Positions 2,844-40,640 of a stretch of DNA of 64,000 bases are shown here, piece by piece; within the stretch, counting starts at the first letter, position 1; every line of letters starts with the position of its first letter. The notes beneath the pieces were generated by a model. It made no database searches and was not told the DNA's origin. It saw only the letters and a list, made by a program, of their open reading frames with translations. The position numbers and the translations under genes were made by a program. The DNA comes from a virus (lineage: Duplodnaviria; Heunggongvirae; Uroviricota; Caudoviricetes): positions 8,153 to 72,152 of IMG/VR virus record IMGVR_UViG_3300003323_000621. One strand, given 5' to 3'.

Positions 2844-3388
2844 TATTTATTGTTTTTATATCTATAAACTTCCTTTTCTTCATTTGGAATATCCCACCAT
2901 TCATCCATTTTTAATTCATGCTCATTATCATACCCTAATCTGGTATTCCACCAATCTTTTATCCATTTAGTTTTATTAAATATATGATAGAATAAAGTAT
3001 GCTCTTTTATAACCTTCCCATCAACTTTTGTTTCCTTAGAAAAAGGAAAATATAAATTTATATAAGTTTTACTGAACTTAGAATATTTACCTTGTTTAAA
3101 GTATTTATATTCCTTTATAAAATCTTTAGGGAATTTAAAAACAATCATTACATGATCTCCTATATTATAATCATCATGTATGACTTCTTTATATTTATCT
3201 ATAAAATCTTCAATATCACTTGAACCAGATGGTTTAAATAATAGATATAAACTATTTTTATATTCTATTTCATATCCATTATCTCCTAAATAAGCATTTA
3301 TAAATCCTGCCTTTGATAAATCATCATTAAGTATATTCAATGCAGGTAATAAAAATAAAGTTGTATTTGTAAACTTCTTATCTGCCAT
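2843..3388 (-). CDS. hypothetical protein (181 aa)
   Basis: ORF track. Confidence 0.5.
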   Translation of the reverse strand: MADKKFTNTTLFLLPALNILNDDLSKAGFINAYLGDNGYEIEYKNSLYLLFKPSGSSDIEDFIDKYKEVIHDDYNIGDHVMIVFKFPKDFIKEYKYFKQGKYSKFSKTYINLYFPFSKETKVDGKVIKEHTLFYHIFNKTKWIKDWWNTRLGYDNEHELKMDEWWDIPNEEKEVYRYKNNK

Positions 3389-4883: not shown

Positions 4884-5355
4884 TAGTTATTATTACATTA
4901 TTATTTACATCAATACCTACATTAACTTCTACATGATCTCCCCATTTACCAAGAGCAACTTCTTTTGGTAAATCTGATACAATAGAGTGTAAATCATCCA
5001 TACAATTTTTATATGTTTGATTAAAATTTTCATTAGTTACTAATGTGTATTTACTATCATTTTCTGTAATTTTTCTAAGAACATATGTTTCAACAAAACT
5101 ATTTCTATATATTTCAGAGAAATCAATTTCTACTCCATTTATCTTATTAATACCATTTACTTCAAATTGACATTCACTACCATCATTAAAATATGGTGTG
5201 TATTGTGTCCAGCTAAATGATTTGATAAATGAATACTTGTCAAATATTTGTTCTTTTACAAAATTAACAAACTCTTCAGAATATTTTTCAATGTAATTAT
5301 CCCTGGCTTTACAAAATTCTTGTTCGTAGTTTGCTAATTTATCTTTTGAATTCAT
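4861..5355 (-). CDS. hypothetical protein (164 aa)
   Basis: ORF track. Confidence 0.45.
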   Translation of the reverse strand: MNSKDKLANYEQEFCKARDNYIEKYSEEFVNFVKEQIFDKYSFIKSFSWTQYTPYFNDGSECQFEVNGINKINGVEIDFSEIYRNSFVETYVLRKITENDSKYTLVTNENFNQTYKNCMDDLHSIVSDLPKEVALGKWGDHVEVNVGIDVNNNVIITIENYEHD

Positions 5356-6473: not shown

Positions 6474-8345
6474 TTATCTTCTTCTATTATTGTAGCTTTC
6501 CTGATATACTATTTTATTAACAGTAGTACCATCAAAATTGATACATTGACCATTTTGAAGGAATTTTAATCCAGCTTCACCACAATTATAGAAATAATTG
6601 AAATAGACTCCTATAGTTCCCAATAGGAACATTCTTTCATCATATTCACTTACACTACATTCACCATCAGTTAAGCAAATACCATTATGTTTTGCTTTAT
6701 TAATGATGTGTCTTGTGACACAATCAATAGAAGTACCTCCACCATCAGAAATCATTAAAATTCCTAACTCAGTAGCTTCTACCTGTCTTACACTAGTATC
6801 AAAAACATATAGATTATTAAGCATATCCATATTTAACATTGCAAGAGCAATACTCTTAGCAAACATCATATTTGATACTCCAGGAATACCTGAACCAGAA
6901 CCCATAGAACCAGATACATCTATATATAGATCAATTCTACCAAGAGGTTTTCTTTCTTCAGTAGTTAATCTATCTAACATAGAAGATTTAAATACAGGAT
7001 GTATATATTCTATACCAAATATCTCACTTATTTCATCTGCTTCAAATAAATCTATTTCTCTAGTTTGGTATCTCTTAGAGAAATAGTTTAAAGAGTTATC
7101 AAGAATATTCTTGATAGCTTCAGCTATTGCATGTTTATTAATTGCTAATTGAGCAATATCATGTCTAATATTGTTGAGATTAAGAATCTCAGTTACTCCA
7201 GCTAAATCACCTCTATCAAGATTAATACCTGCTTTTTCCAGATCTGTCATTAATTTATCTGCTTGACTAATAGCATCATCAAATCTTTGTTGAACTGATC
7301 TAGTTTTAAATAGATTATCTATTTTTTCAGCTAATTTATCATTAACAGTTTTTTCTTTAGCTTTTCTTTCTTCATTTTTCCTTTTCCATTCATCAATTTC
7401 TTCTTTCTTTAAATTTCCACTAGCATCTTGTCCTCCTGATGTATCTTTAGCTTTAGATTTACCTTCTCCATTTTCATCTCCCTGATCACAATTTCCATCA
7501 CCTTTCTGAGGATTACCAGAAGATTTTTCTCCTTTATCAGATGAAGAATTTTTCTCTGAGTCATTCTCACCTTCTTCTTTTTGTTCAGAATCAGATTTAT
7601 CTTCTCTTCCTTTTCCTTTATTTTTGTTAGAGTTTTGTGAGTTATTTCCATTTTCTTCACTATCAGAATCATCTTCATCTGATTCATTTCCATTTGATTT
7701 TTCATTTCCTTTCTTAGATTTATTATTTCCCTTAGATTTACCTTTACCTTTTGAAGAGTTGGAGTTAGAATCAGAATCTTCACTTTCATCATCACTTTCC
7801 ATACTATTCATGTCTTTCATTGCTTTCATTAATTCATTTCTTTCAGAATCAGTCATAGCATTCCACATTTCTGTAAATAAAAAATTACAGATTTCCCTGG
7901 TATACATGAAAGAAGCAATAGAATTATTATTACTAACAATTTTTAACAGACTATTATTTACCTTTTCAAGAATTTTAAACTTTACTTTATTAGAATCATT
8001 TTCAGAATCAAATCTTATATTCTCACTTTTGTTGTAGTATATAGAATATATGTCATGAATTAAATCTTCTGTAATAAAATCCTTGTAAAATTTCCTGGCA
8101 ACATTTACATCACCATTATCATTAATATCTTTAAGATTTTGATCACTTGTACCTTTACCTCTACCAACAGTATGAAAAAACTCTTTATTATTATCCCTTA
8201 TTTCTCTACAAATTTTATTCTGATCCCACCATGACATATAAGGTTTAACAATTTCAGCTCTTTTCTTACTAATAGGTGATTTCCAACTATCAAAATCAAA
8301 CCAGGAGGATGACCATCCCCCTGATTTTTTATTATTTTTGGACAT
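6474..8345 (-). CDS. von Willebrand factor A (VWA) domain protein with very long acidic Ser/Asp/Glu/Lys/Gly-rich disordered insert
   Basis: C-terminal DVSGSMGSGSG is a MIDAS DxSxS motif followed by VWA-like beta-alpha pattern; lies immediately downstream of a MoxR-type ATPase (classic pairing). Confidence 0.7.
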   Translation of the reverse strand: MSKNNKKSGGWSSSWFDFDSWKSPISKKRAEIVKPYMSWWDQNKICREIRDNNKEFFHTVGRGKGTSDQNLKDINDNGDVNVARKFYKDFITEDLIHDIYSIYYNKSENIRFDSENDSNKVKFKILEKVNNSLLKIVSNNNSIASFMYTREICNFLFTEMWNAMTDSERNELMKAMKDMNSMESDDESEDSDSNSNSSKGKGKSKGNNKSKKGNEKSNGNESDEDDSDSEENGNNSQNSNKNKGKGREDKSDSEQKEEGENDSEKNSSSDKGEKSSGNPQKGDGNCDQGDENGEGKSKAKDTSGGQDASGNLKKEEIDEWKRKNEERKAKEKTVNDKLAEKIDNLFKTRSVQQRFDDAISQADKLMTDLEKAGINLDRGDLAGVTEILNLNNIRHDIAQLAINKHAIAEAIKNILDNSLNYFSKRYQTREIDLFEADEISEIFGIEYIHPVFKSSMLDRLTTEERKPLGRIDLYIDVSGSMGSGSGIPGVSNMMFAKSIALAMLNMDMLNNLYVFDTSVRQVEATELGILMISDGGGTSIDCVTRHIINKAKHNGICLTDGECSVSEYDERMFLLGTIGVYFNYFYNCGEAGLKFLQNGQCINFDGTTVNKIVYQESYNNRRR

Positions 8346-8374: not shown

Positions 8375-9523
8375 TTAATCTACCAATTCTACCTTAGTAA
8401 ACCTGTGCTTTACTTTCTCTTCTACTTCTTCTATAAGAGATTTAATCTCTTCTATTTGTTCTTGACCAAGTTTACCTCCTTTAGTATAAGTACTAACAAG
8501 AAGATTAATTTCATTCATAGTTCTTTCATAATGATCCTTAGATTTGATACCAGGAATTAAATCAACTTTATCAAGTACTGCTCTCATTTCAGGAGTAGTG
8601 AGCTTTTTAGAAAGAGTATTAGCTGCTGTTTCATTGATCATAATAGATGCAATTTTAACAAGTGCAGCATCTATCCTACAATTATATACAATAGATGCAG
8701 TTTTAACTAATCTTGGAACATAAGTTAATGTTCTATCACTAAGATGTTGATAAGCAACATCCAAAAATGCTTTGAGCTTATATTCAGGAATATTTACTGC
8801 TTGAATTTCTTCTTTAGTAGGAATATAAAGATCAATTGCTTTGGTATAATTCTTATCACCAGCTTTGAAATATGATTCCATTAACTGCATGTTCATTCTC
8901 TCAACTTTCATTTTAAGAATAAATCTGTCCCAGAAAGGATTTCCTTTCTCATCAGCAGGAATAACATTACATGTTCCAACAAATAAATTCCATGGGCAAG
9001 AAACTTTATCTTCTCCATTAAAGAGAATCTTCTCATTCATTATACCCAAGAAAGCATTTCTAAGTCCAGGATTAGCCTTATCAATCTCATTGATAATAAT
9101 ATAAGAAGATGTAGTAATAGGAGCTATAAGTTTCCATTCTCCATTCTGCATAAACTCCTTCATATTCATTCTACCCTTTACCTCAGAAGATCTTGTACCC
9201 TCATCAGTTTCAAGGATATATACACTCTTTTGATATGCTTTTTCACCTTCTTCTGTAGTTCTATCATGAGATGCAGCTGCATAATCTGTAACTACATTAG
9301 TTTTACCTACACCTGGAGGACCTTCCAAAAGAATTGGTAAAGAAGCAGCCTCTGCTAAAGCCAACATTTGAAATACTTCATCCTTACCTATAAGGTGAGT
9401 TACAATGTGAATATGTTTTCCTTTCTTATTATCTGATACCATAACATGTGTATTTTCTGCTTTTTTATCTACTGTATTATTCATAAAATCTTCGTTCTTA
9501 CTAATTATTAAAATAACAAACAT
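8375..9523 (-). CDS. MoxR-like AAA+ ATPase (AAA_5 / CbbQ-NorQ type)
   Basis: Walker A LLEGPPGVGKT, Walker B IIINEIDKANP, sensor-1 LFVGTCN; 382 aa, typical size. Confidence 0.75.
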   Translation of the reverse strand: MFVILIISKNEDFMNNTVDKKAENTHVMVSDNKKGKHIHIVTHLIGKDEVFQMLALAEAASLPILLEGPPGVGKTNVVTDYAAASHDRTTEEGEKAYQKSVYILETDEGTRSSEVKGRMNMKEFMQNGEWKLIAPITTSSYIIINEIDKANPGLRNAFLGIMNEKILFNGEDKVSCPWNLFVGTCNVIPADEKGNPFWDRFILKMKVERMNMQLMESYFKAGDKNYTKAIDLYIPTKEEIQAVNIPEYKLKAFLDVAYQHLSDRTLTYVPRLVKTASIVYNCRIDAALVKIASIMINETAANTLSKKLTTPEMRAVLDKVDLIPGIKSKDHYERTMNEINLLVSTYTKGGKLGQEQIEEIKSLIEEVEEKVKHRFTKVELVD

Positions 9524-25108: not shown

Positions 25109-25121
25109 AAATTTTAATTTG

Positions 25122-25195
25122 TGACCTTGCCAGGATTCAAACCTGGGACTTACATCTTAGAAGGATGTCACTCTATTCAGCTGAGTTACAAGGCC
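25122..25195 (-). tRNA. tRNA-Arg (anticodon TCT)
   Basis: Manual cloverleaf on the minus strand: acceptor GGCCTTG/CAAGGTC (one G.U), D-stem ACTC/GAGT, anticodon stem ACATC/GATGT with loop CTTCTAA, T-arm CCAGG-TTTGAAT-CCTGG, discriminator A. Confidence 0.7.
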
Positions 25196-25727: not shown

Positions 25728-25841
25728 GTTTTTAGTTTTTATTATTAATAAATTAAAATTATAACACCTACTGGGTATGCCAACCTTACCTACAATGGTA
25801 GGCCACAGACATTTTTTAATAGCACAGTGTTATAATTTTTG

Positions 25842-25915
25842 TGGACCCTACAGGAATTGAACCTGTAACCCCTTGATTATGAGTCAAGTGCTCTAACCAA
25901 TTGAGCTAAGGGTCC
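25842..25915 (-). tRNA. tRNA-Met (anticodon CAT; elongator type, could also be a lysidine-modified Ile2)
   Basis: Manual fold on the minus strand: acceptor GGACCCT/AGGGTCC, D-stem GCTC/GAGC, anticodon stem CTTGA/TCAAG with loop CTCATAA, T-arm ACAGG-TTCAATT-CCTGT. Confidence 0.75.
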
Positions 25916-25922
25916 TTACTAT

Positions 25923-26726
25923 CTAAGTAAAGGATAGTTTTTTTTGAAAAGATATTGTTTTAACTTCTTCTGGTTTTAGATGCCCTTTAATAAAATATTG
26001 ATGTATTAAAGTATTAACAAGTCTTGCTCCTAAAGTGTTGTATTCAAATACTTCTTCTATGTATTTTTTAATTTCTATAATTGCTTTTTCTCTACTTGAT
26101 CCCTCAAATAATTTACAGTAATTTTCTAATAAAGGAGAATTATCTACTAAATCAAATAAATCTTGTAAAGAAAAAGATGATGTGTTATAGATTAATCCTA
26201 CTCTTCCTAGAAATTCTGTTTTTACTCCAAGTTCTCTGAGTCTATCTAATGTTATATTTTCTTCTCCATTAAATGCTCCTGCAAAAATAAATAAACAATT
26301 ACTTGTATTTGCTTCTACATATTTACCATAGTCACCAAAAACAGAAGAAGTATTACTTTCTAATACTTTCAAAAACTCATTTTGTACTCCTGTAGTATAC
26401 TCATGAGCAGTAGATGAATTAGAATTTCCACTTATAAATAATTTATCAAATTCATCAACAAATACAATTGTAGGCTTGCCAGCAAATCCTAATAAAGGAC
26501 TTAAAGCTTTTGATAAACTATTTCCAGAAGTTCCTTCTTTTGTAAGCTGAGCTGCATTAATTTCTAAAAATCCTACTTTAAATTCCTTAGCTAAAGAACT
26601 AATAGTATAAGATTTTCCTGAACCAGAAGGACCTGTTAAAATAAAATGAGGTCTAATCTTCATTTCTGAAGATGTAAGAATATTAATAATTCTTCTAAGT
26701 TCTTTCTGAAGGGATTCTTGTATCAT
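25923..26726 (-). CDS. ClpX/HslU-like AAA+ ATPase domain protein (no zinc-finger N-domain, truncated C-terminal region)
   Basis: Walker A ILTGPSGSGKS, Walker B IVFVDEFDKL, then CLFIFAGAFNG (cf. ClpX ILFICGGAFxG sensor-1 region). Confidence 0.55.
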   Translation of the reverse strand: MIQESLQKELRRIINILTSSEMKIRPHFILTGPSGSGKSYTISSLAKEFKVGFLEINAAQLTKEGTSGNSLSKALSPLLGFAGKPTIVFVDEFDKLFISGNSNSSTAHEYTTGVQNEFLKVLESNTSSVFGDYGKYVEANTSNCLFIFAGAFNGEENITLDRLRELGVKTEFLGRVGLIYNTSSFSLQDLFDLVDNSPLLENYCKLFEGSSREKAIIEIKKYIEEVFEYNTLGARLVNTLIHQYFIKGHLKPEEVKTISFQKKLSFT

Positions 26727-28714: not shown

Positions 28715-28729
28715 AAAATTATATTTTTG

Positions 28730-28815
28730 TACCCCCAATGGGACTTGAACCCACACTCCCATTACTGAGAACAGGATTTTAAGTCCTGCATGTCTACCAA
28801 TTCCATCACAGGGGT
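28730..28815 (-). tRNA. tRNA-Leu (anticodon TAA), long variable arm
   Basis: Manual fold: acceptor ACCCCTG/TGGGGGT (two G.U), anticodon stem CAGGA/TCCTG with loop CTTAAAA, long variable arm, T-arm GTGGG-TTCAAGT-CCCAT; 86 nt. Confidence 0.65.
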
Positions 28816-30352: not shown

Positions 30353-30643
30353 TTAAGGAAAATAAAATATAAATTCTGTCAATCCAGATCTTTCTTTATT
30401 CTCTGAAGAAGTTTGATGTTTAACATCTTTCCAACCTTCTTTTTTATATAAAAATGCCACTTCATCTCTCACTTTAGTTGAGAATTCTTTATCAACAATA
30501 ACATTTATATAATTACTACTATTGTTATTTATATAAACATAATTGTTTCCTGATATTTTGAGTTCTAATCTATTAATTAGTTCTTCAATCTGAAATTCTT
30601 CTTTTCTTTGTAAGAATTGTGTAGGACTAGTTAAATTTCTCAT
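30353..30643 (-). CDS. hypothetical protein (96 aa)
   Basis: ORF track. Confidence 0.4.
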   Translation of the reverse strand: MRNLTSPTQFLQRKEEFQIEELINRLELKISGNNYVYINNNSSNYINVIVDKEFSTKVRDEVAFLYKKEGWKDVKHQTSSENKERSGLTEFIFYFP

Positions 30644-30656
30644 AATTGATTATTCT

Positions 30657-31076
30657 ATTTTATTGTGTGGAGGTGAGGGGAGTTGAACCCCTGTCCAAAC
30701 AAATACAAACAATATAAGTTACATGTTTGACTAGCTTTTTCTTCCCTGTCTTGGAATATTAGACTTCCTATATATTACTTTAGTATTACTAAAATAATAT
30801 TATCCAGTTTAATTATAGTCTAAAAACTTTCACTGCTGCCCTTTAATGTTGCAGATCATTAAAAACCTCAACTTATTATTTCTCCTAATGAGGCAATAAG
30901 GATAGGAATTAAGCCATTACAGCTTCATCTTCAAAGATGGATGCTAAAACTGCATCAACATCATTTCCTACTTCAATGCTAGAAACTTCTGCATTTATTA
31001 TTTGAATACTCTTATTTAAGTGTTTACATCCTTAACACTACATGCCTATATTTATCCATAATTTGCTGTCAAAACC
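30657..31076 (-). ncRNA. ssrA: candidate tmRNA (transfer-messenger RNA, ssrA-like), phage-encoded
   Basis: Minus-strand 5' end GGGGGTGTATTGGTTTTGACAGC (cf. B. subtilis GGGGACGTTACGGATTCGACAGGG) and 3' end GGACAGGGGTTCAACTCCCCTCACCTCCA (cf. E. coli GGACGCGGGTTCAACTCCCGCCAGCTCCACCA). 7-bp acceptor GGGGGTG/CACCTCC with G3.U70 Ala identity pair. Internal GTAAACACTTAAATA resembles the B. subtilis ssrA region upstream of the resume codon, followed by an ORF ...GCA GAA GTT ... GCT GTA ATG GCT TAA. Confidence 0.75.
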
Positions 31077-31088
31077 AATACACCCCCA

Positions 31089-31418
31089 TTATTTATAATA
31101 CTTCCTTAATGATTTATTAGGAAATCTGCTTTTTTTCTCTGCTTCTACAGCAGCTATCTTTTCTTTATCTATTTTTATCTGTTCTTCTGCATCCCAAAAA
31201 TTATTAAAGCTATATTCAATACCATTCCATTCCACATTACAGAATTCTCCTATACCACCTCTTTCTAATCTAAGAGAATCTTTTTGATGATATATAAATG
31301 GAATTGTTATATTAAATATTGAATATAATTTTAATCTGTATAGTTTATAATAGATCAATCCATTTTTAGCAACAAAAGTGTCTATGTAATATCTATACTT
31401 ATATTTTAATATTTTCAT
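31089..31418 (-). CDS. hypothetical protein (109 aa)
   Basis: ORF track. Confidence 0.4.
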   Translation of the reverse strand: MKILKYKYRYYIDTFVAKNGLIYYKLYRLKLYSIFNITIPFIYHQKDSLRLERGGIGEFCNVEWNGIEYSFNNFWDAEEQIKIDKEKIAAVEAEKKSRFPNKSLRKYYK

Positions 31419-31585: not shown

Positions 31586-32410
31586 CTATTTTAATGAAAA
31601 TAGGGTAGAGCTATTATTACCTAACATATATTGAGGTAATGCTCCATTCCATTTTTCAGCTTTAATAAGTTCTATGTATTGAGGGCTTTGTCTTAAAGCT
31701 TCTTGTTTTAATAAGATAGCTCTTGCCTCAGATTGAGCATTAATTACTAATACACTACTATCCCTTTTTGCAGCAATAATATCATTTTTAGCTTGTGCTT
31801 CTAATGATTTACTCTCATTTTCTATTCTTAGTTTCTCTTGTACAGCATTAGCTTTAGCAGCTATATTAGCTTTAAGAGCATCATCAGGTGTTAATCCTGA
31901 TGTAGTATTAGTAACATGAAAATAAGGATTTAATTTAGCTTGTAATTCTTTTGCAAGCTCTATTTCATATCCAGCTCTATTATTTAATAAACTATCAGGA
32001 TCAAAAGTATTAGTAGCATCTCTGTATACTTGCTGTACAATACCTTTAAGCCATCCTTCTTCAATATCTGATAAATCTTTTCTAAATAATTGATACATAC
32101 TATCAGCTCTTTCAGCATTAACAGAGTAATTTAGAATTGGATGTACTTTAAAGATTGTTCCACCTTTAGCCCATACTTCAAACTCCTCATAATTCTTATG
32201 CTGTACAAAGGTAGGAATCTCTACTACTTCTGATGCTCCTGGCATATACCATACCCAACCAGTTACATATTTAATATTAGATACCCCTCTTTCTTCTCCT
32301 GTAAGATTAACTTTTAAGCCAATATGACCTGCATTAATTCTTTCACAAGAGGTAGCTGTTACTAATAGTAGTAAACCAGCTAAAATTGATAATAATGTAC
32401 TTCTTTTCAT
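31586..32410 (-). CDS. SPFH/band-7 (prohibitin/HflKC-like) lipoprotein
   Basis: Lipobox LVTATSC after a signal peptide; C-terminal Ala/Glu/Lys-rich coiled region (ELAKELQAKLN...IAAKANAVQEKLRIENESKSLEAQAKNDIIAAKRD...ARAILLKQEA) typical of SPFH-domain proteins. Confidence 0.5.
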   Translation of the reverse strand: MKRSTLLSILAGLLLLVTATSCERINAGHIGLKVNLTGEERGVSNIKYVTGWVWYMPGASEVVEIPTFVQHKNYEEFEVWAKGGTIFKVHPILNYSVNAERADSMYQLFRKDLSDIEEGWLKGIVQQVYRDATNTFDPDSLLNNRAGYEIELAKELQAKLNPYFHVTNTTSGLTPDDALKANIAAKANAVQEKLRIENESKSLEAQAKNDIIAAKRDSSVLVINAQSEARAILLKQEALRQSPQYIELIKAEKWNGALPQYMLGNNSSTLFSLK

Positions 32411-39177: not shown

Positions 39178-39630
39178 GTTAATGCTATTTTATGATGTAT
39201 AGTTGATGAAATTTAATGAAAGGTAATATGTGGAATAATAGAAAAGTAGGTTATAGCTTCTCTATTATTCACACATAAAACCTTTTGATTTACAATTAGT
39301 TCTACTCATAACCTGATTTTAATTTTTAAACTAATTACCCATACAAAGTTTACTAAGAATAGAATGTTCCACATGGAACAATGAGTATAATTTAGTTTAA
39401 TGTACTTTAGTAAAAGAGAATAGTGGATGTCATACATCAGTATTTATTGTAATCCTGCAGTATTACTACCTTCAATCTCATTTAAGATGGGGTTTTCACC
39501 CAAGTACTCCATTATTATTCTACTAAAGAAACTCTTAATATCAGCTAGAAATCAAAGAACTATGTAATTTGATCAATAGATCAAAGAATATAAAAATACT
39601 TAAAATTAATTTGATCAATCTTTTATGACA

Positions 39631-39658
39631 GCAAAAAAGCAAGGGCCATTGCTGGCCC
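39631..39658 (-). terminator. rho-independent terminator for minus-strand gene 39664..39939
   Basis: GC-rich hairpin GGGCCA-TTGC-TGGCCC (39643-39658) followed on the minus strand by a U-run (plus-strand AAAAAA at 39633-39638), directly after the stop codon. Confidence 0.6.
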
Positions 39659-39663
39659 ATTAC

Positions 39664-39939
39664 TTACAGGGTAACTTCCACATCTTTCTGTTCAACAATC
39701 ATGTGGTTAATATAAGGTTTACCAGAAGTCTTGCTATTTTTCTCACTAGAGACCAGCCTTAATTGCAAGTCCTTCTTAGTATTCAATGCTTTTATCATAT
39801 CCTCATGGATAACAACCATGAATCTTGGTAAATTATTCCAGAAAGTCAACCATTTTGTTGGTTGTCCTTTTTCATCTTTACCTCTTGTTAATGGTAAATC
39901 ATTTACGCCAAGTTTAAGTTTAATTTCAGAAAGTAACAT
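39664..39939 (-). CDS. hypothetical protein (91 aa); first gene of the minus-strand module
   Basis: ORF track; followed by a terminator. Confidence 0.45.
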   Translation of the reverse strand: MLLSEIKLKLGVNDLPLTRGKDEKGQPTKWLTFWNNLPRFMVVIHEDMIKALNTKKDLQLRLVSSEKNSKTSGKPYINHMIVEQKDVEVTL

Positions 39940-40244
39940 AAATAAAAGATTTGATTAATTAATAAAAGTACAGGGGATAACCCCCAAGTCCAAATATAAG
40001 GTGGGGAGTTGATGTGACTACCTTTTTAAAAACATCTTTATATTATATTTTGGGAGGGGGGATAATATTAAAGGTTTTCAAAAACACAGTTATAAAGTAC
40101 TTGTAAATTTTGGTGGGGTAAAATTTTTTTGGTATTTTTGAGTATGATAAATAATAGACAAGAGATATTAGATAATATGGTATATATACCAAGTTTCATA
40201 AATGAGAATGAGTATAATTTTATCTCTATTAAAAAGATATTAAA

Positions 40245-40640
40245 ATGGAAGAAAAGACTAAGGTCTGTAAAAAGTGTGGATGTTGTAAACCAGAGAGGGA
40301 ATTCAAAAAGATGGCTGTGTGCATATCTTGTGAAAATAGTACCAGGAATAAGTCTAAAAAGAAAACACAAAAGAATATTCAAAGATCTAAGGAAACTACC
40401 TTAAAATCAAGATATGGTATATCTACATTTGAATATAATGAGATGTTATTACAACAAGAAGGTAGATGTAAAATATGTGGAAAAACAAGTGATAAAACAT
40501 TACATATAGATCATAATCATAGTACAGGAAAAGTAAGAGCTTTATTATGTAATAATTGTAATATACTTATAGGACATGCTAAAGAAGATCCTTTAATATT
40601 ACAACAAGCAATGAATTATTTAATGATATATAATGGATAA
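40245..40640 (+). CDS. HNH endonuclease, T4 endonuclease VII-like
   Basis: VCKKCGCCK zinc motif; LHIDHNHSTGKVRALLCNNCN matches the EndoVII HxDH..G.VRGLLC..CN signature; first gene of the plus-strand packaging module. Confidence 0.7.
   Translation: MEEKTKVCKKCGCCKPEREFKKMAVCISCENSTRNKSKKKTQKNIQRSKETTLKSRYGISTFEYNEMLLQQEGRCKICGKTSDKTLHIDHNHSTGKVRALLCNNCNILIGHAKEDPLILQQAMNYLMIYNG

Follow-up and report, generated by a model that had tools for sequence, protein, structure and literature searches.

What does a tailed phage gain from a transfer-messenger RNA (tmRNA), and is the tmRNA-like locus in IMG/VR record IMGVR_UViG_3300003323_000621 a genuine gene of this kind? We addressed both questions in a window of 64,000 nt, i.e., the whole stretch analyzed here (positions 8,153 to 72,152 of the record; Caudoviricetes), and all coordinates below refer to this window unless another contig is named. 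An initial annotation of this DNA had proposed a phage tmRNA whose peptide tag carries a non-canonical ending, and had named ARAGORN and an Rfam covariance model as checks. Both returned the same full-length, one-piece call: ARAGORN predicted a minus-strand tmRNA at 30667..31087 with the tag AEVSSIEVGNDVDAVLASIFEDEAVMA followed by a stop, and the Rfam RF00023 model matched 30665..31087 (−) over positions 1–374 of 374 with 78.7 bits (E = 7e-29). The annotation had held that a sub-threshold covariance score would speak against it; the score obtained lies above the 47-bit gathering score of the model.

From ARAGORN, Rfam, and the sequence, the one-piece tmRNA gene spans 30668..31087 (−), i.e., 420 nt from G1 (G31087) to the discriminator A30668. 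By direct reading, its 5′ end GGGGGTGTATTGGTTTTGACAGC begins at 31087 and its 3′ end GGACAGGGGTTCAACTCCCCTCACCTCCA stops at A30668, directly followed by CAC, so that the terminal CCA is not encoded. Both ends had been quoted correctly in the initial annotation, as had the 420-nt size, while its coordinates (30657..31076) were shifted by 11 nt. The gene occupies, as also described there, a gap between two minus-strand open reading frames (ORFs; 30353..30643 and 31089..31418), which measures 445 nt, and its phage-borne nature is borne out by genes for a terminase large subunit, portal, major head protein, tail protein, and DNA polymerase in the window. Judged on these signatures and on those described below, the locus is very probably a genuine and functional phage tmRNA gene.

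The tRNA-like domain is complete. The 5′ strand of the acceptor stem (GGGGGUG, 31081..31087, −) pairs at all 7 of 7 positions with the 3′ strand (CACCUCC, 30669..30675, −), next to the discriminator A at 30668, and includes the G3.U70 alanine identity pair that the annotation had reported. The adjoining T-arm (30676..30692, −; Rfam alignment and 3′-end parsing) reads AGGGG-UUCAACU-CCCCU with a TPsiC-type loop. G3.U70 was invariant across 17 viral tmRNAs, and compensatory changes were found at acceptor positions 4–5 in contigs L040 and L041 and in mycobacteriophage Bxz1. Helix 2 is present, and pseudoknot 1 (PK1; 31004..31039, −; tmRNA nt 49–84) consists of two interleaved 6-bp stems: AGUGUU/AACACU (nt 49–54 with 64–69), read from the sequence alone, and GGAUGU/GUAUUC (nt 57–62 with 79–84), a hairpin that is also modeled by the Rfam alignment. 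By inspection, equivalent PK1 stems with altered base pairs occur in L035, L121, and L038, three relatives introduced below. Pairing was checked sequence by sequence throughout, and covariation counts from a MAFFT alignment were dropped for helix 2 because this alignment was structurally inconsistent there. An A-rich spacer of 11 nt separates PK1 from the resume codon.

The tag reading frame covers 30909..30992 (−), 84 nt comprising 27 codons and a stop (ARAGORN and Rfam alignment). The resume codon GCA (nt 96; 30990..30992) was placed identically by ARAGORN, the Rfam alignment, and alignment to relatives, and the stop is TAA at 30909..30911. The resulting 27-residue tag begins AEVSSIEVGN, ends ...FEDEAVMA, contains neither Lys nor Arg, and carries a net charge of −7. 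The tag sequence and ending given in the initial annotation were therefore right, including the departure from bacterial ...LAA, but its description of ...YALAA as near-universal was overstated: almost all of the 101 cellular tags listed in our comparison end in -AA, but as LAA, MAA, FAA, VAA, or IAA. The window tag lacks a canonical ssrA degron C-terminus (Leu-Ala-Ala or Ala-Ala-COOH) and ends Val-Met-Ala instead. An AANDENY-like SspB-binding segment was likewise not found at its N-terminus; SspB is confined to some Proteobacteria. All four terminal residues (A-V-M-A) are non-polar, in line with the hydrophobic or non-polar C-terminal residues of tmRNA tags in general (PMC4131195). Single-Ala or non-AA ends (VA, LA, FA, LV) are moreover common among other phage tmRNAs; the tag of Lactococcus phage PMBT69, for instance, reads ANTQLAVA. 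Since non-polar and single-Ala ends are this common, the ...EAVMA end on its own is weak evidence for a new function, and the length and acidity of the tag are more distinctive than its ending, both traits recurring in a family of viral tmRNAs but not in the listed cellular tmRNAs with the same 3′ T-arm/acceptor sequence.

We then asked how far this tag is conserved. A tmRNA was found at the same position, downstream of a gene for an SPFH/Band-7 protein, in four distinct relatives represented by five loci (L035/L036, L037, L038, and L121), whose SPFH proteins are 54–57% identical to that of the window; in the two longest of these loci, 3–8 tRNAs follow directly after the tmRNA. No tmRNA was present at the syntenic position in four further relatives (L119, L120, L122, and L123). 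The tags of the tmRNA-bearing relatives are AEVELSDMTFDSLMEMINQEEAVLA (L035/L036), AEVQLSDMTFDSLMSEINQEEAVLA (L121), AEELSDMTFDSLMEEINQEEAVLA (L037, read by eye), and DKVELSTMTFDSLMSEINKEEAVLA (L038, for which the ARAGORN frame was wrong); they are homologous, 24–25 residues long, and end in (D/E)EAV(L/M)A. Rfam scores were 66.6 bits for L035, 74.8 for L038, and 39.1 for L037. In the last case (7624..7960, + strand of that contig), which ARAGORN missed, the tag frame is intact and the 5′ D-loop region, GGGGGTGCTGGATAATTGATTTCAG, is divergent; the low score may point to a copy in decay or else to limited sensitivity of the detectors. One metagenome scan by tag-end pattern added two contigs of the EEAVLA type (L261 and L267) and two that repeat the DEAVMA end exactly (L273 and L259), with L273 encoding the tag DVELSTMTYDSLMAEIGADEAVMA in a tmRNA that scores 59.2 bits with Rfam. 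The recurrence of DEAVMA, and of EEAVLA in five relatives, indicates that the clade has conserved (D/E)EAV(L/M)A at the end of its tags and that this ending is no accident of a single genome.

The tag frame also bears the mark of selection at the protein level. Among four EEAVLA tag sequences, pN/pS ranged from 0.18 to 0.46 in all six pairs, with Ser codons switching between TCT, TCA, and AGC, Leu codons between CTT, CTA, and TTA, and the stop between TAA and TAG. Low pN/pS together with this synonymous switching indicates that the frame is read as protein and evolves under purifying selection.

Beyond these syntenic relatives, the exact 29-nt 3′ T-arm/acceptor end of the window tmRNA was present in 30 IMG/VR contigs, in which the full-length one-piece tmRNAs encode tags of 27–34 residues. 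The tag of L008 could not be read reliably, and the only clear short tag (L024, ...NNDYSLAVAA) comes from a gene of high GC content that lies at the end of its contig and most likely belongs to the host of an adjoining prophage. When bacterial genomes were scanned with the same 29-mer, degenerate at two T-loop positions, at least 120 loci from many phyla were retrieved; among the cellular matches listed, ARAGORN identified 101 tmRNAs, 94% of them with tags of 9–13 residues and ~95 of the 101 ending in AA by inspection. Median tag length was thus 31 residues for viral tmRNAs with the exact 29-mer and 10 for the 101 cellular ones among the matches listed (Mann–Whitney p = 1.2e-8). Because the 29-mer is spread over so many bacterial phyla, it is undiagnostic of the host, and we abandoned an attempt to infer the host from the tRNA-like domain. 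Two of the 101, on contigs of bacterial metagenome-assembled genomes (L241 and L196), carried long tags according to ARAGORN (30 residues, ANTEKGCALGASFALQFAEMCNLASAPALV, and 23 residues, respectively); these may be ARAGORN mis-calls or phage contigs binned into bacterial genomes.

Several of the long viral tags are recognizably related to that of the window. With similarity expressed as z scores from composition-controlled shuffling, the window tag matched those of L040 (VEVSNITVGAEGNIDSLLASLSYSVESELALA; z = 6.0), L018 (VKSQSERVAEGEAILASIFATEYALAA; z = 5.4), L273 (z = 5.4), L041 (VEKSNITVGENGNIDSLLNSLSYEAEEVGAELCFA; z = 4.4), and L035 (z = 3.1), the resume codons of L040 and L041 being set at the aligned column. 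The tag of L010 (ANSNEFAPSVAEADAILASFGYQDAEVLLAA) ties this group to the L001/L022 type, and a weaker tie (z = 3.3) leads to the L013/L026 type. We delineated a long-tag group from IMG/VR, Logan, and JGI contigs (L001–L030, L035–L041, L121, L261, L267, and L273), taking as its defining features a location inside a phage genome and a tag of at least 24 residues that is acidic and significantly similar to other members. The window tmRNA shares all of these, with phage ORFs on both flanks, no integrase, 27 residues, a net charge of −7, and z up to 6.0. Like it, most members have the same 3′ T-arm/acceptor sequence, and their tags are acidic (net charge −2 to −11) and 24–35 residues long. It differs from the rest of the group in being AT-rich, diverged outside the tRNA-like domain, and endowed with a distinct variant of the tag body, and several sister groups, unlike the window, keep the canonical ...LAA end.

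Long tags are not a property of viral tmRNAs at large. In a viral sample gathered with a generic 5′ pattern, the median tag was 12 residues, only 9 of 77 unique tags reached at least 20 residues, and 63 of the 77 ended in AA, so the proposition that all viral tmRNAs are long-tagged was rejected; Streptomyces phages, for instance, encode the short tag ANSNFALAA. Within the group, ARAGORN tags were wrong, cut short, or missing for seven contigs (L038, L040, L041, L010, L007, L002, and L037) and were corrected by alignment and translation; in L040 and L041 a downstream GCA had been preferred over the aligned GTA or GAC resume codon, and for L007 and L002 no call was made. Automated surveys of phage tags would consequently under-count long tags. 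We found no description of the long acidic tag family in the literature searched, which mostly left subscription journals outside its coverage; within that literature the family appears to be undescribed, and it is experimentally tractable. Four contigs with the same 29-nt 3′ end (L014, L015, L023, and L027) carried permuted two-piece tmRNAs with cyanobacterium-like tags (...AANNIVAFSR...). The ARAGORN coordinates of L014, L023, and L027 overlap a flanking tRNA-Thr, and in two of them a tRNA-Ala as well; the four are probably cyanophage tmRNAs tightly packed in tRNA clusters.

How does the window tmRNA compare with those already known? With the one-piece SsrA of E. coli and B. subtilis it shares the 7-bp acceptor, G3.U70, T-arm, long helix 2, and PK1, and also the A-rich spacer, GCA resume codon, in-frame stop, and hydrophobic tag end, as well as a putative pseudoknot region downstream. 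It differs from bacterial SsrA in being phage-encoded, in the length and charge of its tag (27 residues, net −7, no basic residue), in ending ...AVMA and not ...LAA, in its unencoded CCA, and in having no adjacent smpB. The tmRNA of Bxz1-type mycobacteriophages (cluster C1) resembles it in being phage-borne, one-piece, and placed in a tRNA cluster, with the same T-arm and acceptor type; the Bxz1 tag, ATDTDATVTDAEIEAFFAEEAAALV, likewise has a net charge of −7 over 25 residues and a hydrophobic end other than AA. The two tags are nevertheless not significantly similar (z = 1.2; ...ALV vs ...VMA), and the phage lineage and host (Actinobacteria) of Bxz1 are unrelated to the window phage. Three Crassvirales genomes in RefSeq (cr7_1, cr124_1, and cr52_1) encode tags that, like that of the window, end in a single Ala (...TNVA or ...RLVA), but from permuted two-piece tmRNAs with 13–14-residue tags. 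For marine myophages (Melnitz, pelagiphages, and cyanophages), the phage tmRNA is presumed to serve hijacked translation without need of a phage SmpB; these tmRNAs are permuted, with host-like alphaproteobacterial or cyanobacterial tags and in some cases riboswitch control, none of which applies to the window (PMC9004378).

Overall, a survey reported tmRNA genes from 402 of 18,146 phage genomes and treated their function as speculative (PMC9004378). Among isolate phages, about 2.3% of genomes have one (PMC9004378), and huge phages with both tmRNA and SmpB are known (PMC7162821). Listed cases include the Bxz1-type mycobacteriophages, Bacillus phage G, and a form in DS6A that is restricted to the tRNA-like domain (PMC4131195). 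Phage tmRNAs have been assumed to aid translation (PMC9004378, PMC7162821, PMC4131195), and no functional test of any phage tmRNA was found in the literature searched. In our own searches, contig L009 (IMGVR_UViG_3300042199_000105) contained an 82-nt tmRNA-model match (2991..3072, +; 61.7 bits) in which the start of the model is joined to its end. By its sequence, this is a predicted mini-tmRNA reduced to the tRNA-like domain, as in the inhibitory form of DS6A. A match to the Pistol ribozyme (5224..5296, +; 42 bits for a gathering score of 34.5) lies 2 kb from it.

Given this context, we propose a scenario in which the phage tmRNA adds to host ribosome rescue. Host RNase P and 3′ trimming enzymes would release the RNA from a polycistronic transcript of the minus strand, the host CCA-adding enzyme would complete it, and the host alanyl-tRNA synthetase (AlaRS) would charge it with alanine. 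It would then enter stalled ribosomes with host SmpB and EF-Tu; SmpB is assigned to the host because no gene for it was found in the window, where 94 scanned ORFs matched 25 Pfam families and these included no integrase, SmpB, Clp protease, or Lon. Truncated proteins would receive the charged alanine and then the 27 tag-encoded residues, giving the phage extra rescue capacity during infection beside its own tRNAs. The ...AVMA-COOH end is most likely still recognized as a degradation signal by host proteases, either AAA+ or C-terminal-specific ones, since it is non-polar and since sister tags with homologous bodies end ...YALAA or ...LLAA, and on these grounds we lean slightly toward the tag C-terminus being a degron. 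The long acidic body probably has an added phage-specific role, e.g., in the choice of adaptor or protease, or in keeping fragments soluble and exposed. Taken as a whole, a functional one-piece phage tmRNA that depends on host factors for rescue, ends in a degron, and draws an extra role from its acidic body is the best explanation we have, and one we hold with modest confidence.

Several observations weigh against this explanation. The 78.7-bit score is modest, given that other viral tmRNAs sharing this 3′ T-arm/acceptor sequence reach 125–153 bits. The sub-threshold score of the L037 tmRNA raises the possibility of decay in some copies of the lineage. Pseudoknots 2–4 (PK2–PK4) fit the Rfam model poorly, with many non-canonical pairs and low posterior probabilities, and the region downstream of the tag is ~70 nt shorter in sister tmRNAs; PK2–PK4 of tmRNAs are dispensable or replaceable. 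E. coli ClpX reads Ala-Ala, and the window tag has a penultimate Met. The search for SmpB spanned 64 kb of a 121-kb genome. Finally, a model of the tag as an amphipathic helix had to be discarded: its hydrophobic moment was not above that of shuffles (z = 1.07, p = 0.15), which was also the case for most other tags (Bxz1, z = −1.75).

The initial annotation had suggested a different outcome, namely that ribosomes are rescued and the tag is no proteolysis signal, leaving products stable or differently marked. Such a mark might serve, e.g., to bind a phage or host factor through the long acidic segment. Such a role would fit an end with one terminal Ala and not two, a conserved deviation from ...LAA, and would explain why the entire 24–35-residue tag is conserved under purifying selection, beyond the need of a simple degron: 9–13 residues suffice in cellular tmRNAs with the same 3′ end among the matches listed, and the long acidic tag of Bxz1 itself ends ...AALV. 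Yet all four C-terminal residues are non-polar, a trait common to nearly all known tags (PMC4131195), and homologous tag bodies in sister families end canonically (...YALAA, ...LLAA, or ...LALAA), so that with a standard degron on related bodies the window end looks like a drifted variant. Nor was a phage-encoded reader of the tag found, the ClpX-like and SPFH genes of the window being widespread in phages that show no tmRNA. We regard a non-degradative tag as rather unlikely.

Two further possibilities were considered. The RNA might mainly serve as a decoy, sequestering SmpB, AlaRS, or EF-Tu of the host and thereby shutting off host trans-translation, as proposed for DS6A; phage forms restricted to the tRNA-like domain do inhibit tmRNA (PMC4131195, PMC11915505), L009 offers an 82-nt example, and PK2–PK4 of the window tmRNA are weakly conserved. 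A decoy, however, has no need of the intact tag frame, resume-codon context, and PK1 seen here, nor of a frame under protein-level selection, which makes this very improbable. Alternatively, the gene might be a passenger, i.e., a copy of host ssrA that was acquired by recombination or when excision was imprecise, that is neutral or in decay, and whose tag has drifted. ssrA is a common integration site, and its fragments end viral contigs L011, L016, L019, and L028; L024 has what looks like a host-type gene by a prophage, and L037 scores below threshold. In the window, by contrast, the gene is full-length and set amid a phage gene block without an integrase, its synteny is kept across phages whose SPFH proteins are only 54–57% identical, and the tag is under purifying selection in a family so far found on viral or phage-like contigs, unlike the 101 cellular tags listed. 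A passenger origin is thus hardly credible, and it is selection on the tag frame that makes both the decoy and the passenger unlikely.

Returning to rescue with host factors and a degron-ended tag, phage tmRNAs are already a known class, to which this locus adds a member and no new mechanism; should it provide just extra rescue, the degron being slightly different, the finding would be an ordinary one. The locus is nonetheless a clean example of a tmRNA from a phage lineage without a cultured close relative. The broader pattern, in which viral tmRNAs with one type of tRNA-like domain share homologous acidic tags about three times the bacterial length and under purifying selection, recasts the question of why phages carry tmRNA in testable form, through the binding partner of the tag and whether or not it is a degron. 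A more ambitious and quite tentative view, which we think is probably not correct in full, is that long acidic tags define a tmRNA lineage, to date encountered on viral or phage-like contigs alone, that moves among unrelated phages and whose tag body has a function that bacterial tags lack. If so, the tag body of this lineage may recruit or saturate a host protease or adaptor, or mark nascent host chains released when the phage destroys the mRNA of its host; in that case, the effect of phage tmRNAs would extend beyond supplementing rescue to manipulating host proteostasis, with ...EAVMA as one tuning.

The source contig is 121,257 bp, and the window (G+C 27%) also encodes helicases, a primase, an endolysin, and endonuclease VII. 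On these sequence features, the gene resides in what is predicted to be a virulent tailed phage of ~121 kb, from a root/soil metagenome, whose relationship to the crAss-like phages is distant. The terminase large subunit nearest to its own is that of Leptolyngbya phage Lbo-JY46 (37.7% identity), and the identity to the terminases of crAss-like, Cellulophaga, and Flavobacterium phages is ~29–30%. A close isolate relative with a tmRNA was sought and not obtained, as Lbo-JY46 has none, and a nucleotide-level search of the isolate-phage collection gave no match for either the window or the tmRNA. A 5.5-kb contig from a "root metagenome" represents the same phage and carries an identical tmRNA.

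The ORFs flanking the tmRNA, one of 109 residues upstream (31089..31418, −) and one of 96 residues downstream (30353..30643, −), match no family, and just 1 nt separates the stop codon of the 109-residue ORF from the first base of the tmRNA. A promoter scan found no convincing promoter between the two; the combined promoter and terminator scan was uninformative, promoter-like sites being fewer than in shuffles. The 1-nt spacing and the lack of a convincing promoter suggest that the tmRNA is probably processed from a long transcript. ARAGORN found five tRNA genes in the window, and three of them, also recovered by Rfam, lie downstream of the tmRNA on the same strand: tRNA-Leu(UAA) at 28729..28815 (−), tRNA-Met at 25841..25915 (−), and tRNA-Arg(UCU) at 25121..25195 (−). 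Together with the tmRNA, they make up a translation-support gene cluster.

Two neighboring genes were considered as possible partners of the tmRNA. The SPFH/Band-7 protein (31586..32410, −; HflK/C-like, phrog_200, "lipoprotein") is encoded two genes upstream and has 236 relatives in IMG/VR, many on contigs of 100–310 kb; homologs are 45–66% identical, several of them on 105–126-kb contigs. A functional link, with SPFH as a possible FtsH regulator, was rejected: a tmRNA lay within 5 kb in only 2 of the 80 IMG/VR SPFH loci examined, which indicates that the adjacency reflects synteny within the lineage and not linkage. For a 267-residue AAA+ protein (25923..26726, −), the top matches among solved structures were without exception ClpX (E as low as 1.5e-16), with HslU coming next. 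The protein retains Walker A (GPSGSGKS), Walker B (VDEFDK), and a GVQ..LK.LE motif, while GTSG replaces the pore-1 GYVG, and the RKH loop and the IGF-loop segment for ClpP docking are missing. This protein belongs to phrog_5534 ("unknown function"), with more than 2,000 homologs that are 62–73% identical across Tenacibaculum, Chryseobacterium, Shewanella, Vibrio, and Escherichia phages, and by these sequence comparisons its conservation is unusually strong for a phage protein of unknown role. A link between it and the tmRNA was likewise set aside, as no homolog occurred in any of the tmRNA loci compared and phrog_5534 is widespread in phages.

Elsewhere in the window, the coding strand switches at ~39500..40300, separating a minus block (replication, tRNA, and tmRNA genes) from a plus block (packaging and structural genes), and GC skew flips sharply over the same interval, from −0.13 to +0.30. 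This interval is likely a divergent promoter or origin region. Further along the minus block, a MoxR/RavA-like AAA+ ATPase (8375..9523, −; PF20030 bpMoxR, E = 1.1e-21) is followed downstream by a 623-residue protein with no family match (6474..8345, −), and the two may constitute a MoxR-partner pair in this phage.

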